Origin: a virus
IMG/VR virus record: IMGVR_UViG_3300009156_000037
DNA: 53,746 nucleotides
Strand: one strand, 5' to 3'
The notes beneath the pieces are model-generated. The model was not told the DNA's origin, did not search any database, and saw nothing but the letters and a program-made list of their open reading frames with translations. This document shows positions 1,533 through 32,400 of the stretch, piece after piece (positions within the stretch are counted from its first letter, which is position 1; each line of letters starts with the position of its first letter). The translations under genes and the position numbers were made by a program.

Positions 1533-1728
1533 GAAACAGGCTCCTCCACATAATCGCCGCGACCTCTTTGTAGTGACTCTTGTCGTCAGGTCTCAAGGTG
1601 GCCCACACATCGTCTCGTGCCTGCCGGTTGCGAACGGAGGCCAGGCTCTCAGTCCTGGCCTCCGTCGCAACCATTTTGGCCAGCAGCAGGATTCGAGGGT
1701 TGGGCTTCGCTTCCGGCTGCTCTGCCAT
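1513..1728 (-). CDS. Hypothetical protein (71 aa)
   Basis: ATG at 1728 forms TGATG with the upstream stop. The N-terminal extension in the ORF track is judged spurious. Confidence 0.5.
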   Translation of the reverse strand: MAEQPEAKPNPRILLLAKMVATEARTESLASVRNRQARDDVWATLRPDDKSHYKEVAAIMWRSLFHGGTSQ

Positions 1729-8173: not shown

Positions 8174-9619
8174 ATGGCGCTCAGCCTGGCAGAACGGTTG
8201 GCCCTGGTCCCGGTAGAGATCAGGGAGCCGTGGCTTGCCCAGCTACCGGCCAGCGTGCTGGAGGAGATGATCCGGGGCGAGTGGTGGTTCCTGGCCCGTC
8301 CGGAGCAGATCCCACCTGAAGGTGACGAGCTGATCTACCTGTACATGGCCGGTCGGGGCGCTGGCAAGAGCCGTTCGGGCTCCGAGTGGATCGTGGACAG
8401 GGTCGAAAAGCACCCCTTTGACCGTCATGGGGTACCCACCGAGTGGCTGGTCGTGGCCAACACCTTGGCCGATGCCCGCACCATCAACGCCGAAGGTCCG
8501 TCAGGGATCTTGAACGTGCTCAACCGGCGTCGTATCGAGCATCGATACAAGCAGTCGCCACGACCGATGGTCCTGTTCCCGGACGGTGCCAAGATCTATC
8601 TGGAGGGCGCAGACGATCCGGACACAGGGCGTGGATACAACGCCGCCGGTGCCCTTTGTGACGAGATGGCCATGTGGGTCAAACCGTATGAGACCTGGTA
8701 CGAGGGGCTCATGCCAGCACTGCGGGCTGACCTCATCAATGATCACCCACGTGCATTTGTCACCACGACCCCCAAGCCGATCAAGCTGCTCATCGAGTGG
8801 CTGGCCCGCGACGACGGCTCCGTTCATGTTATTACCGGATCAACATTTGACAACGCAACGAACCTTTCACGTCACGTCTTGGCGGAACTACGTAAACGGT
8901 ACGAGGGCACTGCCCTGGGCGAGCAGGAGCTGTACGGCAAGCTACTGGAGCTGTCCGGCGGTGGCCTTTTCAAGCGGATGGACATCGTCAAGAACCGGGT
9001 TACCCGTGCCTATGTCGATGAGCAGGACATCATCTCCACCATCGTCGGGATGGACCCGAACCTTACCGGCGAAGAGGCCGAGACTGGGATCGTCGTGATG
9101 AGCCGTTCCAAAGACGATCATCAATATGTTCTGGCTGATCGCACCGTGCCGTACTCCGGAAGGGCAGCATCCCTGGCAGCCTGGCGGGCAGTGGCAGAGT
9201 TCGGCGCCGACTTCCTCGTCTACGAAGAGAACCTCGGCAAACGGTTCCTGCAAGAAGTCCTCCAGGACGCTTACCAAGAGCTGGTCGAGGAAGGTTTGTT
9301 CCCCCGCTACACCACCGCACCTATGAAGCCAGTCCATGCCCGTCATGGCAAGAAAACCCGGGCCGAACCGGTGGCTATGCGCAGCGAACAGGGTCGTCTA
9401 CACCTGGTCGGCGAGTGGGAGCAGCTGGAAAACCAGATGGTTCTGTTCGACCCGGAGTCCACCCGAGAGTCGCCGGACCGCATGGATGCCATGGTCCACG
9501 CCTCGTTGCAGCTGATGGCTGGGGAGAAGAAGCGGATGCGTATCGCGGACCCGTCCCGGTATGCCTGGAACATTGACCCGTCCGGCTACAGCGTGACCAA
9601 CCTTGAGAATCTCGTCTAA
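8174..9619 (+). CDS. Terminase large subunit
   Basis: Walker A is LYMAGRGAGKSRSG and Walker B-like is ALCDEMAMW. The nuclease half has GMDP... and DRMDAMVHA. It is followed by the portal gene. Confidence 0.9.
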   Translation: MALSLAERLALVPVEIREPWLAQLPASVLEEMIRGEWWFLARPEQIPPEGDELIYLYMAGRGAGKSRSGSEWIVDRVEKHPFDRHGVPTEWLVVANTLADARTINAEGPSGILNVLNRRRIEHRYKQSPRPMVLFPDGAKIYLEGADDPDTGRGYNAAGALCDEMAMWVKPYETWYEGLMPALRADLINDHPRAFVTTTPKPIKLLIEWLARDDGSVHVITGSTFDNATNLSRHVLAELRKRYEGTALGEQELYGKLLELSGGGLFKRMDIVKNRVTRAYVDEQDIISTIVGMDPNLTGEEAETGIVVMSRSKDDHQYVLADRTVPYSGRAASLAAWRAVAEFGADFLVYEENLGKRFLQEVLQDAYQELVEEGLFPRYTTAPMKPVHARHGKKTRAEPVAMRSEQGRLHLVGEWEQLENQMVLFDPESTRESPDRMDAMVHASLQLMAGEKKRMRIADPSRYAWNIDPSGYSVTNLENLV

Positions 9620-9681: not shown

Positions 9682-9969
9682 ATGACGCTGGTCGTAATCC
9701 TCGTCGTGGCAGTAGCGGCCGTGACCCGCCTGACGCGGCTGTTCGTGAACGACGAGATCATGGTCGGCTATCGACGGTGGGTGGTACACCGGTTCGGGGC
9801 CGATTCGAAAGCCAGCTACTGGGCCCACTGTCCTTGGTGCACGTCCATGTGGGTCGCCGCGCTTGTCATGCCACCAGCTGTGGTGTGGCCTAACCGGTGG
9901 GTGCTTGCCGGACTTGCTGTTCCCGCAGCTAGCCTAGTCACTGGACTGATCTTGGAGCGTGAGAAGTAA
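9682..9969 (+). CDS. Small membrane protein, DUF1360-like
   Basis: Hydrophobic segments plus HCPWCTSMWVAAL, matching the C-x-W-C...W motif of that family. Confidence 0.55.
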   Translation: MTLVVILVVAVAAVTRLTRLFVNDEIMVGYRRWVVHRFGADSKASYWAHCPWCTSMWVAALVMPPAVVWPNRWVLAGLAVPAASLVTGLILEREK

Positions 9970-11885
9970 TGAACCTGCGGGGGCAACGTAAGAGCAGGGA
10001 CCTGGCGGTCCCACACGTGGCGCCAGAGTCCCTTGTTGCTTCCGCCGCGCGCATTACCTCCCTAGAAGGTGGCGGCTGGCGCACCTACAAGTTCGGTGAC
10101 GAAACGTGGCAGCAGGAGACATGGCGTCTCTACGACCTGATCGGTGAATTCCACTTCCTCGCCAACTGGATCGGATCGGCCTGCTCCCGGGTGCGTATCT
10201 ATGTTGCCAACGTAGACGACAACGGGCGCATCCAGCAGGAATCCACTGACAAGAAGGTGGTCGGACTTGCCGACACCCTGTTCGGTTCCCCCACCGCCAA
10301 ATCTGAGGCATTGCGAATGCTTGGTGTCAACCTGACTGTGGCTGGCGCCTGCTACATCATCGGTCGCTCCACCGATGATCCTGAGGAAGACGACTGGGCG
10401 GTGGTGTCCTGTTCCGAGCTGCGCCGCTACGGGGGCGACGTCTCGTTTGTGTGGCCGGACGGTAGCAAGGAGAAGCTCAACCCGGAGCGGGACATCATCA
10501 TCAGGGTGTGGACCCCCCATCCGAGACGGAGCATGTGGGCTGACTGTCCAGCCCGTGCCGCCATGCCGATGCTGTGGGAGATTGAGCGGTTGACCCGCTA
10601 CGTCTTCGCGCAGATCGACTCACGCCTGGTCTCTGCCGGTATGGTGCCGATCCCGAAGGAGACCAGCTTCCCTGACATTGACTCCGATATCACGGGGGCG
10701 GAGGCCCTGACTGAACGATTCGTTCGGTTGGGGTCTGCTTCATTGAAGGGGGAGGGCACGGCGGCGGGCGTGGTACCCATGTTCGTGGAGATGCCGATGG
10801 AGGCACTCGGCAAGATCAGTAATGTGGAGTTCGCCTCGACGTTGTCTCAGCAGGCTATGGAGCTGCGTTCGGAGGCCATTCGCCGGTTCGCTTTGGCGAT
10901 GGACGTGGACCCATCCATCCTGTCCGGGGCGGGGGAGGCCAACCACTGGGGCGCCTGGCAGATCATGGAAGGCCAAATCAAGATCCACATTGAGCCCCTC
11001 ATGACCCGTATCTGTGACGCCCTCACCCAAGCCTACCTACGACCCGCTCTCAAAGACGTCAAAGGCAAAGACCCCGATCGCTTTGCCTACTGGTTCGACA
11101 CTGCCCCCCTGACCGTACGGCCACAGCGTCTCCAAGACACCCTCAACCTGTACGAGAAGAACATCGTCAGCGCGCAAGCGGTTCGCCTAGCCGGCGACTA
11201 CAAGAACTCCGACGCACCCAGCGACGACGAAGACGTCCAGCGGTTCATGCGCGAGTTGATGCTGCGTGACCCCAATCTGTTCCAGATCCCCGCCGTACGC
11301 AAAGTTGTCGGCATCACCGACGAGATCCTGCCACCCGACACAGTCGTTACCCCCATGCCAACTGGCCCCGGTGGTGCCGGGCCACCCCCGCCGCCACCCC
11401 CGCCCACCGGGATCGTGCCCGTCAACCCGGCCCCTATACCAGTCGACTCGGAAGCCCAGAACGCCCTACCCGGACCTGGTGGGGGCAAAGGTGTCCCGTC
11501 CGGCGCCCCCACCGGCGTGGTGGCCTCCACCGGGGTACCCAACCAGCTCACCACATTCGTGGTCGCCAACGCGGCTGTACTGCGGGCCCTGGAAGTGGCC
11601 GGCAAACGGCTGGCCGGAAACTACCATCGCCTCGACTTCACCGTACTGTCCCACGAAATCCACACCAAAATGAAGCCCGACCCTGATAAAACCCTCAAGC
11701 TGCTCAATGGGGCTTGGGATCATTTGGAGATCCTCGCTACACATCTCAACCTTGATGTGGATGTTCATAAACTTCAGCAGGTGTTGCACGGCTACTGTAT
11801 GCAGTTGCTGGAGTCGGGGCAGCCGCATCAGGTTCAACACTTGGCCGATGTGTTGAAGCGACGGGGGCTCATCGATGCCCCGTGA
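9969..11885 (+). CDS. Portal protein
   Basis: A 638-aa ORF directly after the terminase region and before the MuF-like gene. Coupled by TAATG. It carries an internal poly-Pro tract. Confidence 0.75.
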   Translation: MNLRGQRKSRDLAVPHVAPESLVASAARITSLEGGGWRTYKFGDETWQQETWRLYDLIGEFHFLANWIGSACSRVRIYVANVDDNGRIQQESTDKKVVGLADTLFGSPTAKSEALRMLGVNLTVAGACYIIGRSTDDPEEDDWAVVSCSELRRYGGDVSFVWPDGSKEKLNPERDIIIRVWTPHPRRSMWADCPARAAMPMLWEIERLTRYVFAQIDSRLVSAGMVPIPKETSFPDIDSDITGAEALTERFVRLGSASLKGEGTAAGVVPMFVEMPMEALGKISNVEFASTLSQQAMELRSEAIRRFALAMDVDPSILSGAGEANHWGAWQIMEGQIKIHIEPLMTRICDALTQAYLRPALKDVKGKDPDRFAYWFDTAPLTVRPQRLQDTLNLYEKNIVSAQAVRLAGDYKNSDAPSDDEDVQRFMRELMLRDPNLFQIPAVRKVVGITDEILPPDTVVTPMPTGPGGAGPPPPPPPPTGIVPVNPAPIPVDSEAQNALPGPGGGKGVPSGAPTGVVASTGVPNQLTTFVVANAAVLRALEVAGKRLAGNYHRLDFTVLSHEIHTKMKPDPDKTLKLLNGAWDHLEILATHLNLDVDVHKLQQVLHGYCMQLLESGQPHQVQHLADVLKRRGLIDAP

Positions 11886-12600
11886 CAACGATGAGGCCAC
11901 CGTGTACCGGGTCGTGTCGGCAGCGCTGACCCGGTGGCTCAGCGCCACTCGGGACTTGGTGATGGCCCCATTTCGTCGCTACCGGCTGATGCCCAACCCG
12001 TCTGGCGTCGCGGCGACTCAGCAGTTGTGGGACGACGAGGTGGACACGATCATCACCGTCCTAGGACGCATCGCTATGGGTGCCTGGGCTGAAGCCACTG
12101 ATGTCCCCCCGGTGTCCCGCCACGCCTTCGTTATGAGTCAGCTCGCCCAAACCCAGAACCTGCTAGTTCGCATCCCAGACGAGGTGTACAACCTGGTCTT
12201 TGCCGAGATAACAGATGGGGTGAATGCCGGTGAAAATTTGGATCAGGTGGCTGCGCGCATTGACGCGCTTCTCAACTTCACCGCAAGCGAAAGATGGCCC
12301 AATCGCGCCCGCACCATTGCCACCACTGAAGTTACCCGTGCTTATGGCGCTGGAACTCTCGCCGCTGGCATGGAACAGTCCCGTGTCACCGGTCGAATGC
12401 TGCGCAAACGCTGGGACACTGAACACGATCAGCGTGTACGGGCCACCCACCGTGACGTGGATGGTGCGGTAGTGGACTTGACCATGCCCTTCTACGTGGG
12501 TGGTTTTCCACTTCTTTTCCCCGGTGACCCTTTAGCACCGGCCGATGAAGTGGTCAACTGTAGATGCGACCTGGTCATCGTTAACGAGAGGGGTCGGTGA
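11875..12600 (+). CDS. MuF-like minor head protein
   Basis: RARTIATTEVTRAYGAG, DQRVRATH and VVNCRCDL are typical Phage_Mu_F/SPP1 gp7 blocks. Confidence 0.75.
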   Translation: MPRDNDEATVYRVVSAALTRWLSATRDLVMAPFRRYRLMPNPSGVAATQQLWDDEVDTIITVLGRIAMGAWAEATDVPPVSRHAFVMSQLAQTQNLLVRIPDEVYNLVFAEITDGVNAGENLDQVAARIDALLNFTASERWPNRARTIATTEVTRAYGAGTLAAGMEQSRVTGRMLRKRWDTEHDQRVRATHRDVDGAVVDLTMPFYVGGFPLLFPGDPLAPADEVVNCRCDLVIVNERGR

Positions 12601-15068
12601 TGGTAGACCCGAACCCGGCCCGAGGGATGCCACTGGCGTTGCAGCGCTACTGGCTGGCGGGTAAAGGCGCGGCGAAGATTCGCTGGGGTATGCCGCACGA
12701 TTTCAACCGGTGCGTGCGACAACTGCGCAAGTACTTCCCGAAAAACCCTCAAGGCTTGTGCAACATCCTGCACCAGAAAGCTCTGGGTGCCCCGCCCGGT
12801 AAAGGCCATCCTGGCGAGCACGCCATGCTCGCGGCGGCCAGTGAGATGCAAGACATGGGCGCGCTGTGGGCTGGCCCGCTTGCCCCCATCGGGCGCCCCA
12901 CTGGTGAACCCGCCAAGACGCGGGTGTTCGAACCGGGTTCGATGGGGCACCGCTCGCTGCCGCTGCCGTTGGCCTACCGCAAGGTCAACTCGGGTTCACA
13001 CCAAGGTGCGGTCACCGTGGGCCGCATCCTCGGCTTCACCATCGGCCCCGACCACGAAGGCCAGGACTGGGCCTGGGCGTGGGGGGACTGGCTCAACGAG
13101 GACATCGTGCCCGAGGTCAAAGAGGCTCGGTACATGGTCCAGCAGGGTGTGGTCGGTCCCAGCGTCGACCCCGGTGGGCGGGCCATCGCCACCATCAACC
13201 CGGAAAATGGCTACGAGCACACCATCGAGTACACGGTCGGTGGGGTCACCCTGGTCGCTATCCCCGCGTTCGCGTCGATGCGCCTGTTCGATTTGGACGA
13301 GGATGGCATGTGGCCGGACGACGACCCCGACATGATGGGTGACTATGAGGGATTCGACTCTGACGACAGCGCTGACTGTGGCTGTGGCGACGGATATGTC
13401 TTACGTGTGGGTGAGGCCGACACGTATGCGGTCAACCCGGCCGGGTGGCGTGGGCTCCCCCTGGCGCCTCGTGATGCAGTCTTTGACAATGACGACGCGG
13501 TCAAGCGGATCACCGCGTGGGCCCAGGTCAACGCCCAGGGTGCTGACGTCGATAAGCTGCGCCGCGCATTCATGTGGCGAGACCCCCGCCAGCCGGAGAC
13601 GGCGACCCAGGCGTACCGCCTTCCGGTAGGCGACATCATCAACGGACGACTGACTTTGATCTACCACGCCATCTACGCCGCCGCCGCCCTGATCTCCGGC
13701 GCCCACGGTGGGCTCCCCAACGTGCCCGATGAGGACAAGAACCAGCTCCGCAACGTCATCACCGACATCTACAAGGAGATGGCGGCCGAATTCAATGACC
13801 CATCGGTGCGGGCCCCCTGGGACCGGCCAGAGACGCAAGGTAAGGAGTTCGCCATGGCCGATTCCCCCGTTGAGCCCTACGGTGACGTGAAGTACGCCGA
13901 CCCTGGCTACCGGGACAACAAGAAGCGCTACCCGATCGACACGGAGGAACACGCTCGGGCGGCCTGGAGCTACATCAACAAGCGCAAGAATGCCGCGTTC
14001 TACACTCCCGAACAGCTCAAAACGATCAAGGAACGGATCCGGGCTGCCCTGAAGAAGTTCGGAGTAACCGTGTCCGAGGAGGCCGGCGAACACGCCATGG
14101 ACTACGCACACCTACTCAACCCACCAGCGGCCTGGTTCGAGGACCCCGAGTTCGACGCCAGGACGCCGCTCACCGTCACCGACGATGGGCAGGTCTACGG
14201 CCACCTGGCCGCATGGGGCGAGTGTCATCGCGACGTCACCAACCGGGAATGTGTCCTGGCGCCCCACTCCAAGCAGGGCTACGACCCGTTCCACCTTGGT
14301 GCGGTGCAGACCGACGACGGCAAGCTGGTCAAAGTCGGCAAGATCGTCATGGACACCCGTCACGCCGACATCCGCCACGGATACGCCTCCGCCGCCCTGC
14401 ACTACGACAACACCGGTGACGAGGTTGCCGTGGTCCGGGCAGGCGAAGATGAGCATGGCGTATGGGTGGCCGGTGCGGTAGTACCCGAGGTCGACCAGAA
14501 GAAGATCGCCAAGCTGCGCCGCTCCCCACTGTCCGGGGACTGGCGCCGCGTCGACGGCAACCTGGAGCTGACCGCCGCCCTGGCCGTCAACGTGCCCGCC
14601 TTCCCCGTGTACGCCATGGACGGTGACGAGCGAACCGCTCTCGTCGCTGCCGGAGCTGTCTACCCCGACCCGGAAGCAGGCACCTTCAGCATCGACATGG
14701 ACCAGATCCGGGAGCATGTCCGCGACCAGGTACAGGAGCAGGAAGCCCAGGAGGATCGGGGTTGGCGGCTGCGGGAAATCCTGGAACAGGAGGAGGACCT
14801 GCTTCAAGCCAAACGGGCCGCCATGCTCGCGGCCATTTATGCTGCGGAAACAGGAGATGCCCCCCTACCAGTTCAGCAGGACGTGGCTGATTTGGCGTCG
14901 GAGGCGGCCATGTTGGACCGTCAAGCCAACGCCCAGTTCACCATCGTGCAAGAGCCGGAAGGGGCCAACTCCTCTGGTCAGGAAGTGGAGGAGCCGGCCC
15001 CAGTCCAGGGCGAAGGTCAGGTTCCTGTGTCGCAGGCTAGCGTGCCAGGACAGGGAGCGGGGTACTAA
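12597..15068 (+). CDS. Capsid maturation protease (multi-domain, scaffold-like acidic C-terminus)
   Basis: YWLAGKGAAKIRWGMPHDFNRCV, YADPGYRDNKKRYPIDTEEHARAAWSYI and HLAAWGECHRD are blocks I associate with actinophage head proteases. It lies between the MuF and capsid genes. Confidence 0.6.
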   Translation: MMVDPNPARGMPLALQRYWLAGKGAAKIRWGMPHDFNRCVRQLRKYFPKNPQGLCNILHQKALGAPPGKGHPGEHAMLAAASEMQDMGALWAGPLAPIGRPTGEPAKTRVFEPGSMGHRSLPLPLAYRKVNSGSHQGAVTVGRILGFTIGPDHEGQDWAWAWGDWLNEDIVPEVKEARYMVQQGVVGPSVDPGGRAIATINPENGYEHTIEYTVGGVTLVAIPAFASMRLFDLDEDGMWPDDDPDMMGDYEGFDSDDSADCGCGDGYVLRVGEADTYAVNPAGWRGLPLAPRDAVFDNDDAVKRITAWAQVNAQGADVDKLRRAFMWRDPRQPETATQAYRLPVGDIINGRLTLIYHAIYAAAALISGAHGGLPNVPDEDKNQLRNVITDIYKEMAAEFNDPSVRAPWDRPETQGKEFAMADSPVEPYGDVKYADPGYRDNKKRYPIDTEEHARAAWSYINKRKNAAFYTPEQLKTIKERIRAALKKFGVTVSEEAGEHAMDYAHLLNPPAAWFEDPEFDARTPLTVTDDGQVYGHLAAWGECHRDVTNRECVLAPHSKQGYDPFHLGAVQTDDGKLVKVGKIVMDTRHADIRHGYASAALHYDNTGDEVAVVRAGEDEHGVWVAGAVVPEVDQKKIAKLRRSPLSGDWRRVDGNLELTAALAVNVPAFPVYAMDGDERTALVAAGAVYPDPEAGTFSIDMDQIREHVRDQVQEQEAQEDRGWRLREILEQEEDLLQAKRAAMLAAIYAAETGDAPLPVQQDVADLASEAAMLDRQANAQFTIVQEPEGANSSGQEVEEPAPVQGEGQVPVSQASVPGQGAGY

Positions 15069-15071
15069 CAC

Positions 15072-18000
15072 ATGGCCGGTGTCGGCGACAGCTGGGGCAC
15101 GCGGGAGGAACTACTCCACCCACGTGACCGTCATGGCCGTTTCCGCTCCGCGTGGAAGATGGCCGAAGGTGTCGTCGACAAGCTCATATCACGGCTGGCC
15201 GCATTCAACCCCCGCACCTTCACCTCCGACGAGGAGGCGGGTCACTACTCCCAGGCTCGGGGCGGACGCTACAAGCGTGGTGAGAACCGGGAAAGCGTCG
15301 TTCGGGCCATGTTCCGGGGCTACAGCACTGTCAACGACGACCTGCGGGCTGGTAAAACACCACCCGAGGTGGCGGTCTTTGACCGGGCCATGCAACCCAC
15401 CGACGAGGACCTCATCCTGTCCCGAACCGTAGGCCCGGAAGCGTTCGGTCTCGACGCGTCCACCATTGACCAGATTGAGGAGTACACCGGCAAACTGGTC
15501 GCCGACAAGGCCTACAGCTCGGTACAGCTGGGCACCCCCACCCGACGTCCCGGTTCAGTCACCATCACCTACGCCACCCCCAAAGGCACCCCGGCCATCT
15601 TCCCGTGGGCGTCGCCTGGACAGGCGACCAGGGAGGTGATCCTGGACCACGATCAGCCGTTCCGGATCACCAAGGTGGACCCTGATGGCCAAGGTGGGTA
15701 CTCAGTCTTGGCGGTAGTGGAGCCCAAAGGTACTGGCGGCGAGGTCAAGCCGATAGGGACCAGAGCACTACAACCGACTACCCCAGAACCTGAGGCCCCC
15801 AACGCTCCTGCCGCCCCGCAGGCACCTGTGCAGACTGGTCAACCGGGACGGCCGGAGATCCCACCGGCCCCCCGCAACGAGCCGGTGATCAGTGAGTCCA
15901 TCGGCGGTGGCCCCCAGGCCCCAGGGGCACCTGAGGCCCCAGGAACACCACAGGCACCACAGGTGACCACCCCGGAAGCTCCAGCCGCACCAGTGGACTT
16001 CCGGCAGGCTGTCAAGGACGCCAACCTGCCGGTGCCATCGAAAGGCCCACGGCGCAAGGCATGGAATGAGGCCTTCCTCAGCCTGACCATGCGTCGTCGT
16101 GATCCTGATGATGTGCTTCGCGAGTTGGACTCCGACATGAAGGCCTTCCGCCTTGAACAGGAGGATCGCCTATCGCGTGGCGAAAAGGCGGACCTGCATT
16201 TCGGCGACGACCTGGACGCTCTCAAGCAGCTCGACGACCTGATCCGGGAGAACTACAACATTCCGAGGACCGGGGAAAAGCAGGCCCTGGCACCTGAGGC
16301 CCCCGCTGCGCTCGAAGCCCCCGCTGCTCCGAAGCGTCGCCGTGGCGGTGGTGGATCTCAAAGCAACGCTACCCCCAAGGAGAAGGCCGCCGTTCGGCAA
16401 AGTCAACGGGAACGTGGCATTCGCAAAGAGGCGCCACCTAAGAAGCAGGCGCCGCCACCACAGGTACCCGAGCCGTCTACTGAGGGGCAGCAACTTCTCG
16501 ACGCCGCTGGGATCACCGCCAAGCCGAAGACGGACATGGGCAGGGCAGGTATCGCTATCACAGCGGACCAGGTTGCCCGTAAGAAGCTATCCAAGAAGAA
16601 GGCCGGCGAGCGGCTACGGTCATTTGCCGACAGTGGCACGGCCGGTGAGGACGCTGACCTGGTTCGGCAAGTTGCTGATGCCATTGATCCACCGAAGTTG
16701 GCCGCCCCCACCAAGAAGGCCGTCCCAGCTGAGGCTGTTCCTGAGCCGTCTACGCCTGCTGGTGTGCCTGGATTCCGGTCCCGCAAGATAGCTGGGTCGC
16801 CGGACACTCGTATTGGTGCCGAGACCCAGCGTTACGTGGATGATTTGGTTAAGCGCGGGGACTACGAGGGTGCCCGCACTCGGATAAAGTCGGCTGTCGC
16901 CGACCTGCGGTCTCGCAAGCTCACCAACGACGACCTGTTGTCTAGGCTGGACAGTGATCCAGATTCCCTGGAATCCACTCGTAAAGGTGAGATTGAGGCG
17001 CTGCGTAACCTGGACGAGGAGATCGCGCACCAGGCGAAGAAGGCTGCACCAGCCAAGAAGGCGGCACCTGAGCCACGTACCCCCGGTCAACCGCCCAGGC
17101 GAGCGGTGAAGAAGGTTGCCCCTGAGGGTGCCTTGGCACCCACGCCCAAGGCTGAGGCTGAAGCGGGACGTAAGCCCACCTTGGACGAGGTCCGGGGGAT
17201 GAAAGTTACCGAGCTTCGGGCCGAGGCCAAGAAGCACGGCATCAAGATCTCCTCCACCCGGAAGGCGGACATCGCGGAGGAGCTGGCCCGCAAACTGGAC
17301 CTGACACCAGGTGAAGGTCAGCCACCGGCCAAGAAGGTGGCCAAGGCTGTCGTCCCCACTGACCTTGATGCGGACCTCAACACCACCATCCCTAACCTGC
17401 GCAAGATCGCCGAGCAGGAGCAGATCGAGGTACCCAAGAGCGTCAGGCTCAAGGCTGATCTTCAGCGCTACATCCACGACACGCGCCGCAGTGGTGCCCC
17501 GATCCGAGCGCAGCAGGCACAAGAACGCATTAAGGCCACCAAGACCGACCTGAAGGACGTCAACGCACCCGAGGCGGCCCAGGTGGTGCTGGACCGGATG
17601 ACCATCGCCCAGATGCGTCAGCTAGCTGATGAGAAGGGCATCACCATCCCAAAGACGGCCAAGCGGAAGGCCGACGTCAAAGAGGCCTTGGCTCGTAGCC
17701 TCAATCCACCGGATACGTTCAAGCCGGCCCCCGCACCTGCACGTGAGGCGCCCCCCATCCAGATCCCCGAAGACCACCCGGCGGTGCAGCTCGTGGACCG
17801 GATGCTGAACGAGTTGAACCAAACCCAGATCCGGGAGGCCCTCGCCGAGCAGGGCATCACTGACATCCTGCCTGAAGGGGACCTTGACCGGGAGAAAATC
17901 CTCCACGCCATGTTCCGTCGCGCTGCCCAGATGGAGCTGGCCCACATCCAGGCGCAGCGAGTCAAACGCAAGAAGGCCGCCGCGAAGGTCACTGAGGCGT

Positions 18001-19376
18001 TGGCCCCGGCTGCCCCCTCCGCTGACCTGGACGAACTGGTACGCGATCTAGACCCTGAGATCCTGGCGCGTCGCCAGCCGACGCTTGACAGCGTTCGTGA
18101 AGGTCTCCTCAACCCGAGGAAGACCCCCGCCCAAGTAGGTCGTGAGCTTGCGTCGAACGCACAGCACATTGAAGACTCTACGGCCATCCGGTACGGCGGT
18201 TGGCAAACCCGTCGCCCTGGTGAAGACGAAGAGTTCCGTCGCGAGCTTCAGGAGAAGTACGACAAGGGTATGGCTGAAGTTGCCGAGCTACGTAAGCTGG
18301 CCGACCGGCTGAAGTCCACCCGCCGCAAGCCAGTCAAGAAGGCTGTCCCGAAGGCTACTACAAAGGCTGCCCCGGCCCCCGACATCCCGGCCTCGGTCCT
18401 GGCTGGTATGCGGGAGCGCCAATGGACCGAGCCCATGATCGAAGACATGCGCCAGCTCGGTCCATTGGGTTGGAAGCCATGGTATGAGCATGAGGTGCAA
18501 GACAAGTTGCCGTTTGAGTTGAAGGACTACTCGAACAGCGAGCGTCGGCTACAGGTGGCGTTCGAGTCGAAGACTCCGGTGGACAAGTTCGTGGAGCAGA
18601 TGGAGGCGGACCGTAAGCGCGTCGACAAGGAGTTGGCGCAACCAAAGTCGGCTAAGACTGCCCCAGCCTCGGTGAAAGTGTCCACCGAGGCGACCCCGCC
18701 AGTGCGACAGGTGTTTGGTGGAACCACCGACGAGAGGGGCCGTATTATTAAAATCAACCGGCCGAACGAGGACGAACCTATCCACCTGCCCAACGGTGGC
18801 GTTGACCAGGGGCTATTGCACCTCGACTCGGAGATCGGGAAGGCCTGGCAGGACCTCTACCGTGACCCTCGCCCACCCAACTCACTGATCAACGAGTTGG
18901 CTCATATCGGCGAAGATGTAGGCACCGGCAAATTGAGTGTGGGCGATGCTGTCGCCCGGCTTAAGGCACTGAAGGGTCGCACCTCCGACCCGGCGGTGGC
19001 CCAACGGATCCAAGAACTCATCGCGAACCTGGACGCACCCGCCGCCGACGTCCCCAACCTCCCAGATTCGGTTCCCGAAGTGGTCCGCAAGCTGGTGGCC
19101 GACGTCGCCGCTATGCCCACCATGCGTAAGACTGGTCGGATAGGAACCGAAAACCGCCGCCGGTCTGTGTTGGACGAACTAGTTGACTTGATTCGTCGAA
19201 TTGACGCAGGCGAAGTCGACACCTTTGAGGCTGAGGTAATGCTGCGGGAGCGTCGCGTCCACGAAGGTATGGACGGGGCCACCCAGTATTGGCGTCTTGT
19301 CGAAAGTCTGTTTGGGCGTAACAACCCCAACTCGCGTGAAATCCGGACGTGGATCCGGCACAATCAACCACAGTAG
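15072..19376 (+). CDS. 1434-aa head-module megaprotein with an N-terminal ADP-ribosyltransferase-like domain, Pro-rich linkers, four HeH (SAP/Rho-N-like) repeats and a C-terminal domain
   Basis: The ordered R-S-E signature is FRGYS, AYSSVQLG, ATREVILD. An HPRDRHGRFR motif lies at the N-terminus. Repeats such as VTELRAEAKKHGIKISSTRKADIAEELARKL follow. Confidence 0.65.
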   Translation: MAGVGDSWGTREELLHPRDRHGRFRSAWKMAEGVVDKLISRLAAFNPRTFTSDEEAGHYSQARGGRYKRGENRESVVRAMFRGYSTVNDDLRAGKTPPEVAVFDRAMQPTDEDLILSRTVGPEAFGLDASTIDQIEEYTGKLVADKAYSSVQLGTPTRRPGSVTITYATPKGTPAIFPWASPGQATREVILDHDQPFRITKVDPDGQGGYSVLAVVEPKGTGGEVKPIGTRALQPTTPEPEAPNAPAAPQAPVQTGQPGRPEIPPAPRNEPVISESIGGGPQAPGAPEAPGTPQAPQVTTPEAPAAPVDFRQAVKDANLPVPSKGPRRKAWNEAFLSLTMRRRDPDDVLRELDSDMKAFRLEQEDRLSRGEKADLHFGDDLDALKQLDDLIRENYNIPRTGEKQALAPEAPAALEAPAAPKRRRGGGGSQSNATPKEKAAVRQSQRERGIRKEAPPKKQAPPPQVPEPSTEGQQLLDAAGITAKPKTDMGRAGIAITADQVARKKLSKKKAGERLRSFADSGTAGEDADLVRQVADAIDPPKLAAPTKKAVPAEAVPEPSTPAGVPGFRSRKIAGSPDTRIGAETQRYVDDLVKRGDYEGARTRIKSAVADLRSRKLTNDDLLSRLDSDPDSLESTRKGEIEALRNLDEEIAHQAKKAAPAKKAAPEPRTPGQPPRRAVKKVAPEGALAPTPKAEAEAGRKPTLDEVRGMKVTELRAEAKKHGIKISSTRKADIAEELARKLDLTPGEGQPPAKKVAKAVVPTDLDADLNTTIPNLRKIAEQEQIEVPKSVRLKADLQRYIHDTRRSGAPIRAQQAQERIKATKTDLKDVNAPEAAQVVLDRMTIAQMRQLADEKGITIPKTAKRKADVKEALARSLNPPDTFKPAPAPAREAPPIQIPEDHPAVQLVDRMLNELNQTQIREALAEQGITDILPEGDLDREKILHAMFRRAAQMELAHIQAQRVKRKKAAAKVTEALAPAAPSADLDELVRDLDPEILARRQPTLDSVREGLLNPRKTPAQVGRELASNAQHIEDSTAIRYGGWQTRRPGEDEEFRRELQEKYDKGMAEVAELRKLADRLKSTRRKPVKKAVPKATTKAAPAPDIPASVLAGMRERQWTEPMIEDMRQLGPLGWKPWYEHEVQDKLPFELKDYSNSERRLQVAFESKTPVDKFVEQMEADRKRVDKELAQPKSAKTAPASVKVSTEATPPVRQVFGGTTDERGRIIKINRPNEDEPIHLPNGGVDQGLLHLDSEIGKAWQDLYRDPRPPNSLINELAHIGEDVGTGKLSVGDAVARLKALKGRTSDPAVAQRIQELIANLDAPAADVPNLPDSVPEVVRKLVADVAAMPTMRKTGRIGTENRRRSVLDELVDLIRRIDAGEVDTFEAEVMLRERRVHEGMDGATQYWRLVESLFGRNNPNSREIRTWIRHNQPQ

Positions 19377-19388
19377 AGGAGGGCACCT

Positions 19389-19541
19389 ATGTGCAACTGC
19401 GGTAAGGCTGCCACCAGCAGCAACGATACTCAGCCCTACGTCGTCACCTTCCCTGACGGCACCAAGAAGGTCGTCAACTCCGAACACGCCGCAAAGGTGG
19501 AAGTGACGATGAAAGGTGGCGGAACCTACAGCAGAGTGTGA
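19389..19541 (+). CDS. Small protein MCNCGKA... (50 aa), not in the ORF track
   Basis: AGAGGAGGG SD precedes the ATG at 19389. Hand translation runs to TGA 19539-19541. Third positions are GC-rich. Confidence 0.5.
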   Translation: MCNCGKAATSSNDTQPYVVTFPDGTKKVVNSEHAAKVEVTMKGGGTYSRV

Positions 19542-19673
19542 TACTGTCTTCACACGTAACTGGTAGCTGCGTTTTGGGCCAGTACCAGGAAGAACTGAAC
19601 ACCTTCTCACCGGTGGCAGTGCTCTGGGCCGCATCGGGAGCCCCGATACACGCTCTCGAAGCAGGAGACTGCA

Positions 19674-21419
19674 ATGGACTTCCAGGTACCCGAGGATCTT
19701 AAGGTCCTCACCATTGCCGCGCTGAAGAAGCTCATCGCGAAGGCCCAGGCCGAGTACGCCACTCTCAAGGAGACGGCCGACCCGGACACGGTCACCGACG
19801 AAGATCTGGAAAACCTTCAGGCGCTGCTCCAGTTCGCCATGACCGACGCCCCCAACGAGATCGCAAACCGGCAGCGGCGCGCGGCCGAGTTCAACACCCT
19901 GCCCGCCGATGCCGAGCCGGCCGAGGAGCCAGCTGGTGACGAAGGTGACAGTCCCGATGCTGCTGAAGCAGATGGCGCCGACGAGGAAGAGTCGGTCGCC
20001 GAAGAGGGCCTGACCGCCAGCGGCAAGGTCAAGCCGAAGGTCAAGGACCTCGTCAAGCACAACAGCGGCGAACCTGACGTCCCCGTCTACGAGCGCCCCA
20101 ACTACTCCACCCTGGTCGCGGCGGCTGGCGTGCCCAACTATGAGGCCGGCCAGAAGCTGGACACCATGCTGGAAGTGGCGAAGGCGTTCGAGGCCCGCTC
20201 CGCCGGCCACGGCCGCATCTCCGCTGGTGCCGCTTCGGGTCCCGTGCACTACCCGGTGGCCCAGCTGGTTCGCAACTACCCGGCCGAGTTCAGTGTCAAC
20301 GGCGACGACACCGACTATCCGAAGCTGCTGGAGGTGGCCTCCGAGACCCGACTGCCCGGTGGCAGCCTGCTCGCCTCGGTGGAGGCCCGCCGTAAGGAGA
20401 TCGAGGAGGCCAACCCTGGCCGGGACTCCCTGGTCGCGGCGGCCGGCTGGTGTGCCCCGTCGGAGACGGACTACTCGATCTGTCTTCAGATCACCACGGA
20501 TGGCATGTACGACGCCCCCGAGGTGCAGGCCCGCCGGGGTGGTATCCGCCACAACACCGGCATCGAGTTCGACTCGATCTTCGGTACCGGCACCGGCTTC
20601 TTCGACCTGACTGAGGCGCAGGTCGCGTCGGGTACCACCAAGACCTGTCTGGAGATCCCCTGCCCGTCGTTCACCGACGACCGCCTCGGTGTGACCGGTC
20701 TGTGTCTGACCGGCAACATCCTGTCGATTCGAGGGTACCCGGAGTTCACCGCCACCTTCGTTCGTGGCGCCCTGGCCGCGTCCGCCCACCAGATCAACCG
20801 GGAGCAGATCGCTGACGTGGTCGCCGGTTCCACCTCGGTGAACCTGAGCGCCGCGCAGCCGTGGGCCACCGACGTGTCGGTGGTGTCGCAGGTGCTTTCG
20901 GCGGTGGAGATGGCCATCGTCGACATCAAGTACCGGCTGCGGATGCAGCGGAACGCCACCCTTGAGGTGGTCATGCCGTACTGGATCCTGGCCCAGATGC
21001 GCGCCGACTGGATCCGCCGCAACGGTGGCAACTACGCCGACATGCTGTGTCTGGCTGACTCGGCCATCTCCAGCGCGTTCAGCTGCCGTGGCGCCCGGGT
21101 GCAGTACGTCTACGACTGGCAGGACGCGTTCAGCAACGTCTCGGCGACCGGTGCCGGTGCCGACACCCCGATCAACTTCCTGAACAAGGAACTTCAGTTC
21201 CTGGTGTACCCGGCGGGTACCTGGGTGCGGGCGGTGTCGGACGTGATCACGCTGAACAGCGTGTACGACTCCACCAAGCTGGCCACCAACCAGGTCACCC
21301 ACCTGTTCACAGAAACCGGCTGGGCGATGATCCGGATGTGTCCGGTGAGTCGGGTCTACACGGTTCCGATCTGCCCGAGCGGCCGGACCGGTAACCAGCA
21401 GACCATCACCTGTCCCTAA
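19674..21419 (+). CDS. Major capsid protein with N-terminal scaffold-like (coiled-coil plus acidic) domain
   Basis: GCAGGAG SD. The first ~130 aa are coiled-coil and acidic. The body contains AAGWCAPSE and is capsid-sized. A strong hairpin follows the gene. Confidence 0.7.
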   Translation: MDFQVPEDLKVLTIAALKKLIAKAQAEYATLKETADPDTVTDEDLENLQALLQFAMTDAPNEIANRQRRAAEFNTLPADAEPAEEPAGDEGDSPDAAEADGADEEESVAEEGLTASGKVKPKVKDLVKHNSGEPDVPVYERPNYSTLVAAAGVPNYEAGQKLDTMLEVAKAFEARSAGHGRISAGAASGPVHYPVAQLVRNYPAEFSVNGDDTDYPKLLEVASETRLPGGSLLASVEARRKEIEEANPGRDSLVAAAGWCAPSETDYSICLQITTDGMYDAPEVQARRGGIRHNTGIEFDSIFGTGTGFFDLTEAQVASGTTKTCLEIPCPSFTDDRLGVTGLCLTGNILSIRGYPEFTATFVRGALAASAHQINREQIADVVAGSTSVNLSAAQPWATDVSVVSQVLSAVEMAIVDIKYRLRMQRNATLEVVMPYWILAQMRADWIRRNGGNYADMLCLADSAISSAFSCRGARVQYVYDWQDAFSNVSATGAGADTPINFLNKELQFLVYPAGTWVRAVSDVITLNSVYDSTKLATNQVTHLFTETGWAMIRMCPVSRVYTVPICPSGRTGNQQTITCP

Positions 21420-27391: not shown

Positions 27392-29476
27392 ATGACGCGG
27401 CCAGATGGCGAGGCATTCATCGATGTCCATGCCAACACGAAACCGTATGACCGGGAACTGGAAACCGGGGTCCGTAAAGCGTCCGCTGACGCCGACGACC
27501 TTCTCGACGCGGTAGGCAAAGACTGGGGTGACACCCTCGCCGAATCCACCTCGAAAGAGCTGGGTAAACACGGCCGCGACTTCGCTGACTCCATCGAACG
27601 TGGTATCAGCCACGAAGTTGTCCACATCCGGGGCAAGAGGTATGTCATTGATCGGCGTGGCCGTCTCCACGACGCTGCTGGCCGCTTCGTCAAGGCGTTC
27701 GAGGATGAGGTCGAAGACGCCTTCCTACGCTCCGCTGGTGGGGGCGCCGGTAACGTCTTCAACCGCATCGGCACCGCCATCTCCGACGCCATCGGATCCG
27801 GGTTCAACGTCTCCGGCAAATCCCCACTGATCGCCTTCCTGGTTCCCCTGGTCGGCGTCATCGTCGGCCTGGTTATTGGTGCGATCCAGGCCGTCAACAT
27901 CCTCATCGCACTGTTGACCACCTTGCCCGCTCTGATCGCCTCCATCGGTCTTCAGGTTGGGGTGCTGTTCATTGCCTTCAAGGGTCTAGGCACAGCCATC
28001 TCCGGTGCATTTGCAGCTAAAAATGCTGAAGAACTGCAAGAAGCCTTGAAGGGGTTGACCCCCGAGGCCCAGACCTTCGTCAAGTCTCTGCTGCCCCTCA
28101 AAGACCTGTTCAAGTCCATCCAGAGGGTCGTCCAGTCCAACTTTTTCCGGGCCATGGGTGACCCGCTGAGCTTCCTACGATTCCTGAGCCCCACCCTGAT
28201 CTCCGGGTTCGGCATGCTGGCCACCAGCATGGGTCGCTTCTTCCGGGACCTGGGCGTCTTCTTCAACTCGCCTACCTTCATTACCTTCGTCCGGGACATT
28301 TTCCCTGCCACTGCCAGGTGGATTCAAACGTTCGGGCCGGCCTTCATCAAGATCCTTGGCGCCCTGATCGGGGCAGCAGACCAGGCCATCCCGTTCCTGG
28401 AACACGTCGGCATGTTCATCAGCCTCAACCTTGCCAGCCTGGCACGCCGCCTCAACGACATGATCCGAAGCGGCGGCTTCCAGCAGTGGCTGGCCGGCAT
28501 GGAACGCAGCTTCGAACTGTTCGGTGGGTTCCTTCTGGACGCGCTCAGGCTCGTTGGCGTCCTAATGAGCGTGCTCAACCAAGAGGGCGCCGACGAGATT
28601 TTCAAGGCATTCCAGGATGCCTTCCAGCAGCTGGCCTTCTTCCTTGCATCCCCAGCCGGTCGACAAGCCCTAGAGGGGCTCATTAACGCGGCGATCATCT
28701 CCATCAAGGTGTTCACCGGCCTACTGGAGATCATCCTGCTGATACTCGCTGCCATCGAAACCGTAGGCGAGGCCCTCAACGAGCTGTGGAAATGGTTGAC
28801 CACCATAGCCTTCCCCGCCATCGGGGACTTCTTCAGCTGGCTTGGTGGCGCCATCGCCGACTTCTTCGCCGGGATCGTTGGTCACCTCGCCCCGGTCGGT
28901 AGCGCCATCAGGGCAACCTTCGGGTCCATCACCAGCGGTATCCGAGCCAACCTGGACCAGGCCATCGCCTTCGTGACGAGCCTGCCGGGCAGGACACGGG
29001 CCGCTGTGGGAAACCTGGACAACCTGCTCTACAACGCCGGTCGTAGCATGATCCAAGGGTTCATCAACGGCATCAGGTCCAAGCTCGGTGACCTCGCCAA
29101 CATCGCCAAGAATGCCATCCACACCGTCACTGACTGGTTCCCCGGCTCCCCGGCCAAGGAAGGCCCCCTGTCCGGCCAGGGTTACAGCCTGCTGCGGGGC
29201 GAGCGGATGGCGCAAGACTTCGGTGCCGGTATGCGTCGGGGTTTCAGTGGTCTGCGCGACAGCCTCAGCACCGACCTAGGTGGCCTGGTGGACATGTTGA
29301 CCCCGTCCAACACCACCACCAACGGGGTCGTGTTCGGTCCTGGTTCGGTGAAGGTCACTTTCGAGGGTGTTGTACCCACTGAGGATGAGGCCCGTCGCAC
29401 CGGCCGAGCAGTGGGTGCCGGGATCAGCGACCAGCTGGCACGGCGTAACACTGTTCTAGCGGTGAGGACACTCTGA
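27392..29476 (+). CDS. Tape measure protein
   Basis: 694 aa, with a central hydrophobic/Gly-Ala-rich helical region. Position follows the chaperones. ATG at 27392 follows GGAGAGGTGG. Confidence 0.8.
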   Translation: MTRPDGEAFIDVHANTKPYDRELETGVRKASADADDLLDAVGKDWGDTLAESTSKELGKHGRDFADSIERGISHEVVHIRGKRYVIDRRGRLHDAAGRFVKAFEDEVEDAFLRSAGGGAGNVFNRIGTAISDAIGSGFNVSGKSPLIAFLVPLVGVIVGLVIGAIQAVNILIALLTTLPALIASIGLQVGVLFIAFKGLGTAISGAFAAKNAEELQEALKGLTPEAQTFVKSLLPLKDLFKSIQRVVQSNFFRAMGDPLSFLRFLSPTLISGFGMLATSMGRFFRDLGVFFNSPTFITFVRDIFPATARWIQTFGPAFIKILGALIGAADQAIPFLEHVGMFISLNLASLARRLNDMIRSGGFQQWLAGMERSFELFGGFLLDALRLVGVLMSVLNQEGADEIFKAFQDAFQQLAFFLASPAGRQALEGLINAAIISIKVFTGLLEIILLILAAIETVGEALNELWKWLTTIAFPAIGDFFSWLGGAIADFFAGIVGHLAPVGSAIRATFGSITSGIRANLDQAIAFVTSLPGRTRAAVGNLDNLLYNAGRSMIQGFINGIRSKLGDLANIAKNAIHTVTDWFPGSPAKEGPLSGQGYSLLRGERMAQDFGAGMRRGFSGLRDSLSTDLGGLVDMLTPSNTTTNGVVFGPGSVKVTFEGVVPTEDEARRTGRAVGAGISDQLARRNTVLAVRTL

Positions 29477-32400
29477 TGGGCAGCTACAACCCCAACCAGC
29501 CCCGCATCGTTGGCCAGGAATGGGTACCGATCCGCAACGAGGACGTGGCGTTCTCCCCAGCCATCAAGTCGGTGGAGCGGGGATTCGAGTTCACTCTCAC
29601 CTCAGCCCAGACCCTCCAAGATGGACGCTTCTATCTGAAAGAGTGGCCTGACGGAGACGCCAACGGGCAAGTCTTCTTCATGTCGATTTACCCCCGTGGC
29701 CGTGAAGCCGACACGGGGCCCATCCGCCGGGTTGTGATCCCCTGCAACAACGGTGGTATCAGTGGCACCGGTGTCACCATCGTACCCGCCACTGTCAGTG
29801 TTGCTGACGCCCTGTCTGACCCCTCAGATGAAAAGTATGTTCACAGCTTCTCGGGTGGCAACACTACTGTCCAGACCAGGGTGGCCGGGTATTTCGCGGT
29901 AAACAACTACGCTCAGGAGCTTAACGGTAAGAGGATCATTGGCGTCAACCTTCTCTACAACGTCTCCGGCTTCCTCGACCTGATCACCCAGTCTGGTAAC
30001 AGTTGGGGCTTTTCCATCGAACAGGATTCGGGCTATCCGAATGGCTCCATTTACGGTAGTTCAATCATTGGAACCGTTCAGGGCGCCACGTGGACAAGCA
30101 CCTTCTTCGGTAACGGGCCAGTTGAGCGGCTCGCATTTGGGGAAGTAGACCACGCCTGGAATGCCCCCACCAGTCCAGAGAACACCTCAGACAGGTTTCC
30201 GTGGACGTTCGCCGGTCTGCAACGATTCGAGGCAACCGCTGCCAACCGCCATGCCGTCTGGTTCAAGGGCAGCACCAGTGGTCCTACGGCGTACGAGATG
30301 CGACTGCACTACATGGCCCTGGAAGTCTTCTACTGCGAAGAACAACGGGTAGCGGTAGCCGGGCGCAGCTTTGGCTTCGACTCCTCACACACGACCCGTA
30401 ACACGCCCTACGGCTACGGTGTCAACATCGTGCCAATGCGTACTCCTGTCGCATTGGCCACGAATCCAGTTCTTCAGCCTGGCGATTACAGTGTGGTGTT
30501 CGCACTCGCGGATCAGGGCGCGGAATACGGTGTGGCTTCCCAGTCGTATCCGAAACTGAATGGGCTACGAGAACTGTATAGCTTGCCAGGCATGGCAGGG
30601 GTACAGCTGGATCTTCCATTCCCCATTGACCCGGACGTCGTGGGCAAGACTTTCACGGAGACCAGTACCCACATACTGCCCCAGCTGTCGGTGCACACGT
30701 CAGGTGGACCCATCATCGACCTGCACGCCTACGGACGTCAGGCGGTGGCCCCCGTGTATGGGTCGATCTACGCGGAGGCGGAGATTGACGACGATGTGGT
30801 ACCAGCGCCGGGCGCCCCATACCCATGGGTGCGTTACTACGCCCGCCGGTGGGGTGACACGGTCACCCCACTAGTACTCACCAACCAGGCAGCCACTGGA
30901 CAGTCGGTCTTCATCACCCCCGCAGAATGGGATGCGCTAGACGAGATCGTGGACCGATGGAAGGAGATCACGCTTCGATTTGCGTCACCACCCACCATCT
31001 CCACTGCGGCGGGTAGCCCCGACTGGAGGTGGACGGCTGCCGGTGAGTTGGCCGGTAACCGGTGGGAGGTGCTGGGCGCCTACGCCCCGGCGTTGTCGGG
31101 TATTACGGGGAACCTGTACAACCTGGTGCCGTCACCGAATCAGCTGTCGGGGGCCACGTACTTCGGTACAAACGCACAGCTGACGTGGCAGACGATCACC
31201 CCTCCGGTGTCAGGTGTGGCGGCGGACCCCACCGCAGACGGTGTCCTAATCTTCGCGCAGGACATGCCCACCGTCACCGGGTTTGGTATTAGCACGCTAA
31301 GCCAGCCGGTGTCTGGTATCGGCACCAACTGCGGGGTCAACCCGTGCTGCATCCCTAGTGCAATCTCCTACAACCGTCTGACCTGGAGTGCCTCGCCAGG
31401 TATTGTCTACGACCTGTTCAACAACCGGACAGCGGCTAGCGGCTGGGGTAATGCTGACGTAGGTGGCGCCTGGACAAGAACGGGCGGTCTAGCGGCGGAC
31501 TACTATGTCCAAAATGGATCAGCATTCCATAGTCTGAGTGCTGTTAACACATCCCACTACAGCACTATCAGCAATGGGATCCGCGACTCAGACATCACCG
31601 TCGACTTCACTGTGCCGGTTGTGGCGTTGGGTGGCGACATTCAGGTCAGTGTCGTTTCCCGCTACGTTGACGTCAACAACCAATACATGGTCACAGTGTT
31701 CTTTCACACCAATGGCACCTATGACATAGCCATCCGTATCAATAACGGTGGCGTGTTCACCACGTTAGCCACGTCGGGCACCTTGGGCGGCTACCAAGCC
31801 AACAGTCGCTTCCACGTAAGGGTTCGTACCGTTGGGTCCACAATCTGGGCCAAGGTGTGGCCCTATGGCCTGGATGAACTGGATGAGTGGCAAGTCACCA
31901 CTGTCAACTCCACCATCACCACCCCCGGTGGGGTGGGTGTCAACAGCTTCCTGGCCGGTTCGAACACCAACACCCTGCCGGTGGTTATCACGTTCGACAA
32001 CTTCATCGTCACCCCCATCGGGTGGGGGTCCTACGAACTGCAACGCATGGACACAGTGGACACCACCTGGCAGACAATCATGTTGGCCACCAACCCCGGC
32101 GTAGTGTCGTTCAACGACTACGAGGCCCGGGTGGGCATCCTTACCTCCTACCGGATCCGGGGCGTGGACACATACGGGTTCTACGGGTTGTGGTCCGTTA
32201 CCGTCTCGGCCACCATCACTGACCCTGGCGTCACCATCGGTTGCACTGGCGGACATGTGCTCATCTTCACGTCCAACGCGTCTATCACCGGTGGCTACAA
32301 CCTGGCCTACTCGTCGGTGTGGGAAGGTCGCGTGGAGGAGGGGTTCACCTTCCCCGAGGCTGGCGAAGTGCAGTTGCAAAAGATGTATGGTCGCGACTTC

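Follow-up and report, generated by a model that had tools for sequence, protein, structure and literature searches.

A 1434-residue head-module protein with an N-terminal C3/VIP2-type ADP-ribosyltransferase fold in an actinophage-like siphovirus, a possible head-loaded multi-effector

The viral DNA considered here, IMG/VR virus record IMGVR_UViG_3300009156_000037 (53,746 nucleotides, G+C about 60%; referred to as the window), carries among its head-assembly genes a 4.3-kb open reading frame (ORF) for a very large protein, the megaprotein, that begins with a predicted ADP-ribosyltransferase (ART) domain. The gene is part of a portal-MuF-protease-megaprotein-capsid block (Table 1), in agreement with an earlier interpretation of the letters alone (the sequence-only reading), which had also correctly described MuF as a gene of its own. 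The placement between protease and capsid genes likewise stands as a position, while the name of the upstream neighbor is less secure, its protease label deriving from PHROG annotation only, with no match to Pfam protease families or in the PDB. The portal/MuF and MuF/protease gene pairs overlap, and the megaprotein ATG lies 4 nt past the protease-gene stop behind a GGAG-type ribosome-binding site (preceding sequence GGAGCGGGG). No promoter-like or terminator-like signal above chance was found in 11.5-22 kb of the window. From its N-terminus onwards, the protein is predicted to consist of a leader, the ART domain, two helical blocks with three to four HeH dsDNA-binding repeats between them, and a C-terminal domain (C-domain), with Pro/Ala-rich linkers in between.

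Table 1. Positions in the window of the megaprotein, its parts, and the surrounding head genes.
Feature	Residues	Window position	Strand	Remarks
Large terminase gene		8174-9619		
Portal gene		9969-11885		
MuF-like minor head protein, separate gene	241 in total	11875-12600	+	PF04233 E 4e-15
DUF6582 and head-maturation-protease-like protein	823 in total	12597-15068	+	PF20223 E 1.5e-20; phrog_18402 E 3e-51
Megaprotein ORF	1434 in total	15072-19376	+	Cysteine-free
C3/VIP2-type ART domain (predicted)	1-218, fold from about 30	15072-15725	+	
Leader peptide WGTREELLHPRDRHGRFRSAWK	8-29	15093-15158	+	HPR..GRF invariant in family
Predicted catalytic Arg (LILSRTVG)	R118	15423-15425	+	Aligned to VIP2 'vyRw' Arg; R in 85/118 members
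First Ser of STS-equivalent (AYSSVQ)	S150	15519-15521	+	Aligned to VIP2 STS motif
Predicted catalytic Glu (T-R-E vs VIP2 E-K-E)	E188	15633-15635	+	E in 48/118 members
Linker motif APRNEPVISESIGGGP (= PRNEPVISESIGGG)	266-281	15867-15914	+	Within Pro/Ala-rich linker after ART domain
Conserved helical block 2	306-400	15987-16271	+	Kept in about 85/120 homologues
HeH/SAP/Rho_N repeat 1	709-740	17196-17291	+	Pfam Rho_N E 5e-5, SAP 1e-4; family HMM E 4e-11
HeH repeat 2	770-805	17379-17486	+	Pfam HeH E 0.02; family HMM E 2e-14
HeH repeat 3	842-875	17595-17696	+	Family HMM E 3e-13
Possible degenerate HeH repeat 4	906-950	17787-17921	+	Likeness to repeat 3 only, z 4.1
Conserved helical block 3	980-1100	18009-18371	+	Kept in about 25 homologues
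C-terminal all-alpha domain	1230-1434 (about 205)	18759-19373	+	AF2 pLDDT 91.7
DUF7196 ORF (MCNCGK...), between megaprotein and capsid genes	50 in total	19389-19541	+	PF23826 E 1.6e-10
Major capsid protein, Rosebush/phiAsp2-like	581 in total	19674-21419	+	phrog_777 E 3e-131
E, expectation value; HMM, hidden Markov model; AF2, AlphaFold; pLDDT, predicted local distance difference test.

The ART fold of the N-terminal domain (N-domain), first proposed from its motifs, was borne out by profile searches and modeling, by which the domain is of the C3/VIP2 type. Pfam family PF03496 scores 24.4 bits on the isolated N-domain (E 2e-5, cut-off 23.4), falling to 20.2 bits, below the cut-off, in the full protein, and is matched by 21 of 28 family N-domains, with a best E of 5.6e-11. 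The profile of 28 family N-domains matched VIP2 (9.7e-14), iota Ia (2e-6), and C3stau2 (3e-4) in the PDB, as well as Lmo0066, component a of the C. perfringens binary enterotoxin, and CDTa. The AF2 model of the N-domain has a pLDDT of 86 and a predicted template modeling score (pTM) of 0.84, and a Foldseek search with this model returned C3bot1, C3bot2, C3lim, CDTa, and iota Ia with a probability of 1.00, E values around 4e-10, and TM scores of 0.60-0.71.

With VIP2, iota Ia, CDTa, C2I, and the C3 exoenzymes (PF03496), the N-domain shares the fold together with an Arg in strand 1, the Ser of the STS motif, and a Glu at the start of strand 5. Of the Arg-Ser-Glu (R-S-E) signature noted earlier, the motifs around S150 and E188 hold, while the Arg assigned in FRGYS (R82) is unconserved and has to be replaced by R118, which aligns to the VIP2 Arg. 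Identity to these enzymes is only 16-24%, however, and they carry ExE or QxE where the megaprotein has T-R-E; they are secreted toxins, whereas here the domain forms the N-terminus of a 1434-residue head-module protein, most relatives of which lack the Ser/Glu pair. A Glu or Gln at position -2 from the catalytic Glu sets target specificity in known enzymes. Because the motif is T-R-E, neither ExE nor QxE, the target class cannot be read from it; the equivalent of T186 is D in 82, T in 17, S in 14, and G in 4 of the family members compared (n = 118). ADP-ribosylation by the N-domain of this phage is plausible on the basis of its intact residues.

Behind the ART domain, the Pro/Ala-rich spacers pointed out in the sequence-only reading were recovered as six stretches (residues 237-258, 286-300, 407-418, 543-556, 658-670, and 880-897). 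The linker that follows the ART domain is otherwise variable and contains a single copy per protein of the motif PRNEPVxxE[SA][IV]GGG, found at positions 269-335 in the members, in its strict form in 30 of them and in a looser form in most; this motif may be a site of head-protease cleavage (processing) or of docking. The HeH DNA-binding repeats proved to be a family-wide feature; 112 of 121 members carry them, in 1-5 copies. Three of the four repeats originally counted are robust, resembling each other well above shuffled sequences (z 8.9 for repeat 3 vs 1, z 9.5 for repeat 2 vs 3); the fourth is weak, with no Pfam match and no detection by the family HMM. All PHROG matches of the megaprotein are confined to the HeH region, including one to phrog_3281 'endonuclease VII', which probably reflects an HeH-type module of that PHROG family, and an NCBIfam search of the protein returned nothing. 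Neither conserved helical block has a match in the PDB. Three helical modules of about 50 residues, once thought loosely similar, were rejected as repeats at z 2.9, 2.6, and 0.3 vs shuffles. Over window positions 14001-20000, the megaprotein region, the AT skew is strongly positive (0.16-0.22), with values of about 0 elsewhere.

The C-domain is conserved as the earlier description had it, at about 205 rather than about 280 residues. Its confidently modeled fold has no match in the PDB or BFVD, and its sequence none in the PDB or Pfam. Across 202 instances, H1397 and E1398 are present in all 202, H1250 in 200, R1352 in 191, and D1252 in 189, with an acidic residue at 1401 in 199; these His/Asp/His-Glu positions are more strictly conserved than the ART site, a polar pattern that suggests a metal or catalytic site and makes the domain a candidate new enzyme or metal-binding fold. 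A profile search of 1.84 billion proteins yielded 331 cluster representatives. With a sensitive HMM, the C-domain was detected in 127 of 150 members of at least 900 residues. It therefore counts as a core module, with the kinase-like and NUDIX domains of some relatives as additions, and the idea that it is one of several alternative C-termini was dropped. One short 'stand-alone' C-domain protein that was looked up turned out to be a contig-end fragment of a megaprotein.

At the other end of the protein, the HPRDRHGRFR motif (residues 16-25, window 15117-15146), already singled out in the sequence-only reading, is an invariant mark of the family: among 162 unique N-domains, H16, P17, R18, and G22 are found in 160 and R23 in 157, with F24 invariant too. 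A DNA-pattern scan of IMG/VR for HPRDxxGRFR gave 106 stretches, about half of them from the megaprotein family. In the non-family ORFs, an aromatic residue precedes the motif by 3-9 positions in 41 of 42 contexts. A Pfam scan of ten such ORFs placed the motif directly after Phage_portal (two), Portal_Mu (one), or Phage_Mu_F (one), after a GNAT and ART-PolyVal pair, before a PI3/PI4-kinase-like domain, and in two peptidoglycan-binding-domain proteins, with no Pfam match for the remaining two (loci outside the family include L114, L132, L123, L141, L092, L087, L147, and L182). Published work ties portal and MuF, as head-anchoring domains, to packaged cargo (PMC5512222, PMC9503650). At least 120 further matches in 185,579 reference genomes were set aside as mostly off-frame, Arg-rich chance occurrences in GC-rich DNA; among those listed, 68 of 120 have more than 20% Arg in the surrounding sequence, and only 30 of 120 have an aromatic residue upstream. 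These matches offered no usable clue to the host.

A metagenome protein search recovered 145 homologues at E<=1e-3, all of them metagenomic, and IMG/VR holds at least 98 loci of the family, of which 84 were analyzed for gene order. The order portal-MuF-protease-megaprotein was found in all 84, with the capsid gene next wherever the contig reaches; some relatives have an additional gene for a cell-wall hydrolase (Amidase_2 or Peptidase_M15_4) between the protease and megaprotein genes (L004, 9036-9902; L006, 9149-9961). The protease-capsid slot may be a general site of head cargo genes. Megablast and tblastn searches of 50,697 GenBank phage records, in which the leader, the N-domain, and the complete protein served as queries, gave no or only chance-level matches, a search of the 185,579 reference genomes for relatives of the N-domain found none, and no literature on the family was found.

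The N-domain is constant within this family, while total length varies about 15-fold, from 516 to 7635 residues. In the IMG/VR loci analyzed, the ORF ranges from 516 to more than 3550 residues. In six of them (L064, L069, L070, L077, L082, and L086), it starts at position 10001, exceeds 3550 residues, and is still open where the retrieved DNA stops; contigs of 95-158 kb hold five of the six. An exhaustive search with the C-domain profile added members of 4428-7635 residues, all with the N-domain first except P0230 and P0206 (about 5000 residues and more). The 7635-residue member occupies the same slot as a 22.9-kb gene (L305, 10001-32908), equal to 22% of its 105.7-kb contig, and combines a NUDIX domain with the ART, while PI3/PI4-kinase-like domains occur in other relatives.

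Regarding the neighboring genes, the 823-residue protein upstream is a composite in which the first 70 residues correspond to phrog_6439, residues 426-495 to DUF6582, and residues 513-692 to PHROG head-maturation-protease families; its counterpart is divided into separate genes in L004 and L305. Downstream, the DUF7196 ORF or an unannotated ORF of like size is found at the same place in five relatives (L003, L004, L006, L304, and L305), with a DUF7196 match also in L004 and L304. Such recurrence does not suggest an immunity gene specific to one domain. The capsid protein has its nearest cultured relatives, at 36-46% identity (tblastn), in Actinoplanes phage phiAsp2 and in Gordonia Wizard-like and Rosebush-like phages, and its residues 1 to 110-200 lie outside the region that aligns with their capsid proteins. 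A megaprotein-type gene is absent from these phages. In Gordonia phage Wizard, an 'RNA ligase' gene occupies the protease-capsid slot. In the contig of the closest relative (L003), a gene for a TROVE (Ro60-like) domain and a ricin-lectin gene lie at 865-3070, just 5' of the terminase gene.

Elsewhere, the window has the gene content of a siphovirus, including a tape measure gene, a primase, and further phage genes. The tape measure gene is followed by a 1068-residue ORF (29476-32682) with a phosphodiesterase-like region at residues 644-847 (phrog_24476), probably a minor tail protein bearing an enzymatic domain. Past the tail genes, positions 34496-43097 encode a glycosyltransferase, a nucleotide-sugar epimerase, a UDP-glucose dehydrogenase, a methyltransferase, a family-2 glycosyltransferase, and a ricin-type lectin protein, a cluster that may serve as a glycosylation cassette for the virion or the cell surface.

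The explanation that best accommodates these features, in which we place about even confidence, is that the megaprotein is a head-loaded, Alt-like multi-effector protein of the polyvalent type, with its ART intact in this phage. The multi-effector description is preferred because the catalytic pair is mostly lost in the family, the termini are invariant, and NUDIX or kinase-like domains have been added in relatives. The ART fold, the separate MuF gene, the fixed slot, and the HeH repeats bear out part of the sequence-only reading, which took the megaprotein for an ejected internal virion protein that travels with the DNA and modifies a host target. From gene position and precedent, we infer loading, processing, ejection, enzymatic activity, and a host target as follows. 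A single compact late operon would supply the megaprotein along with the portal, MuF, protease, and capsid proteins. The constant N-terminal part of the megaprotein would mediate its entry into the procapsid, and the head protease may cut the protein at linker sites. The HeH repeats would hold it on the packaged DNA, with which it would exit the capsid, and its beads-on-a-string layout would fit passage through the tail tube. At the onset of infection, the ART domain would then ADP-ribosylate a host macromolecule, as T4 Alt does, and the C-domain would add a second activity.

T4 Alt itself is an ART of the R-S-E type that is made late, carried in the head, delivered with the DNA, and modifies host proteins at once (PMC5512222, PMC9503650). 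Its mode of action is that proposed here. Alt lacks HeH repeats and an equivalent of the C-domain, its gene is not located between protease and capsid genes, and the stretch that aligns with the N-domain (residues 573-592 of 682) lies near its C-terminus, whereas the ART is N-terminal in the megaprotein.

Several observations weigh against an Alt-like protein. In a direct hhalign comparison, the N-domain (A1) and T4 Alt align with a probability of 0.1 over 20 residues near the ExE strand, which is no detectable kinship, and the site in the megaprotein reads T-R-E in place of the ExE or QxE of R-S-E ARTs. Of the 162 unique N-domains, 51 retain both S/T150 and E188, 87 lack both, and 24 have one of the two. 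Because the pair is kept together in only 51, ADP-ribosylation is not the conserved job of the family. Packaging and ejection rest on gene position and analogy, as no cultured phage carries a relative; no description of the HPRD motif was found in the literature; and a scan of 20 other window ORFs, a part of those present, revealed no gene for a macro, ARH, or other immunity protein.

The pattern at the active site leads to the main rival explanation, in which the N-domain is a pseudo-ART that serves chiefly as a non-catalytic adaptor. The family would then have a structural job, the attachment of a long DNA-binding protein to the portal or to the inside of the capsid, and the intact site of this phage would be retained or secondary. 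In VIP2, iota Ia, and CDTa, a dead N-terminal domain of this kind docks the toxin to its translocation partner. The family profile matches the inactive VIP2 N-domain too, the leader and the TKVxxDGxGG strand (D205, G206, G208, and G209 in the last strands of the N-domain) are invariant where the Ser and Glu are so often absent, and a degenerate site goes with greater protein length (median 1984 vs 1566 residues). However, the Arg, Ser, and Glu are all present in this protein, in its nearest relatives P0001-P0004, and in about 40 others, this protein and its closest relatives belonging to an intact group of 38 out of 162 N-domains. Moreover, the Ser and Glu co-vary as a unit (odds ratio 31, p 6e-19, uncorrected for phylogeny), as expected from selection on an active site. 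The inactivity of the 'degenerate' members is itself unproven because the Asp found at -2 in 82 of 118 members might substitute. The adaptor explanation appears rather unlikely, and those that follow are less likely still.

An unpackaged, late cytoplasmic enzyme resembling T4 ModA/ModB, active during assembly on host or phage proteins (e.g., head components) and placed in the head operon for timing only, agrees with the ART fold, the intact site, and co-transcription with head genes. It leaves unexplained the fixed slot in 84/84 loci, the invariant terminal peptide common to portal and MuF fusions, the HeH repeats, growth to 7635 residues, and the NUDIX and kinase-like additions, and is considered improbable. 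Similarly low credence is given to a scaffolding or internal DNA-organizing protein that would be removed at maturation or stay DNA-bound in the head with no action in the host. The gene does lie between the protease and capsid genes, the usual scaffold position, and the protein has long helical, charged, Pro/Ala-rich stretches and dsDNA-binding repeats. A scaffold is nevertheless expected to be helical, enzyme-free, and of near-constant size, whereas one lineage here carries an ART fold and spans 516-7635 residues, a variation hard to square with a size-determining role; toxin-type enzyme folds with intact sites, invariant His/Glu clusters, and NUDIX and kinase-like domains are foreign to scaffolds. 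The extra 110-200 N-terminal residues of the capsid protein may in addition be a built-in scaffold, and phiAsp2 and Wizard lack a megaprotein-type gene. Finally, an ART tethered by the HeH repeats that modifies DNA (of the host or the incoming phage) in the manner of pierisin, Scabin, or DarT would account for an R-S-E-type ART and three to four dsDNA-binding repeats in one chain and for a T-x-E outside both the Arg-specific and the Asn-specific class, but is highly improbable given that the nearest relatives in sequence and fold (VIP2, iota Ia, CDTa, and C3) modify proteins and that DNA-modifying ARTs are absent from the sequence matches and from the 50 Foldseek matches listed.

Returning to the head-loaded multi-effector, comparison with other phage systems shows what is shared and what is not. 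In Microbacterium phages of clusters EH and EJ, a VIP2-type ART is fused to MuF, and the fusion is a predicted virion component (PMC7302621, PMC5576092, PMC9503650). Like the present gene, these fusions place a VIP2-type ART among the head genes of an actinophage-like siphovirus, but they, like the MuF polymorphic toxins, bear the toxin as a C-terminal tip, whereas the ART here is N-terminal and the protein far larger. PF04233 was not found in the megaprotein, so MuF is not part of the same chain as it is in MuF toxins. The polyvalent proteins (Iyer et al. 2017) are large multi-domain late or virion proteins with ART and other effector domains, Rho-N/SAP HeH domains, and extreme length variation; the megaprotein likewise has several effector-type domains in one head-module chain (ART, HeH, and the His/Glu C-domain). 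Polyvalent proteins, however, use the H-Y-D ART-PolyVal family, whereas the megaprotein family has a fixed domain order and a constant N-terminus, and no LPD, zincin-like metallopeptidase (MPTase), or ART-PolyVal domain was detected by Pfam in the megaprotein or in the N-domain or C-domain families. Another very large, fast-diverging actinophage gene is that of Burro gp27 (Microbacterium cluster EK, more than 4400 residues), thought to be processed and virion-associated (PMC7302621), although it occurs in different phages and gene positions, and no sequence similarity between it and the megaprotein was detected. In summary, head-module ARTs that are predicted to be packaged were already known from T4 Alt, from MuF-VIP2 (PMC7302621), and from a survey (PMC9503650), while the present case differs in having a free-standing N-terminal R-S-E ART without MuF, joined to HeH repeats and a domain whose fold has no known relative, in a family with no cultured member and a mostly lost ART site.

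A further and more tentative proposal, which we regard as possible though doubtful, concerns the leader. An extended motif, [W/F]x3-6[L/E]HPRDxxGRFR, could be a general address or processing tag for phage-head cargo, and the megaprotein family a 'cargo train' with an N-terminal address, reaching 7635 residues and carrying several enzymes, including the His/Asp/His-Glu domain. The motif may then mark the start of the cargo, either behind a portal or MuF anchor or, as in the megaprotein, at a free N-terminus. If this is true, the tag would be a phage counterpart of the encapsulin cargo-loading peptides.

To our knowledge, T4 Alt, P1 Dar, and N4 vRNAP are almost the only head-packaged enzymes that have been studied. 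Such enzymes enter with the DNA and act ahead of any phage gene expression, and they bear on host takeover and on escape from defense systems. The family described here has hundreds of environmental members, and its single genes reach 22.9 kb of coding sequence. If packaged, these proteins would provide a natural series in which one carrier is combined with an active or degenerate ART and with NUDIX or kinase-like domains, together with a confidently modeled domain, of a fold with no known relative, that bears an invariant polar cluster. The leader peptide that they have in common with portal and MuF fusions could in that case be a head-loading or cleavage signal, of possible use for the loading of foreign proteins into capsids.

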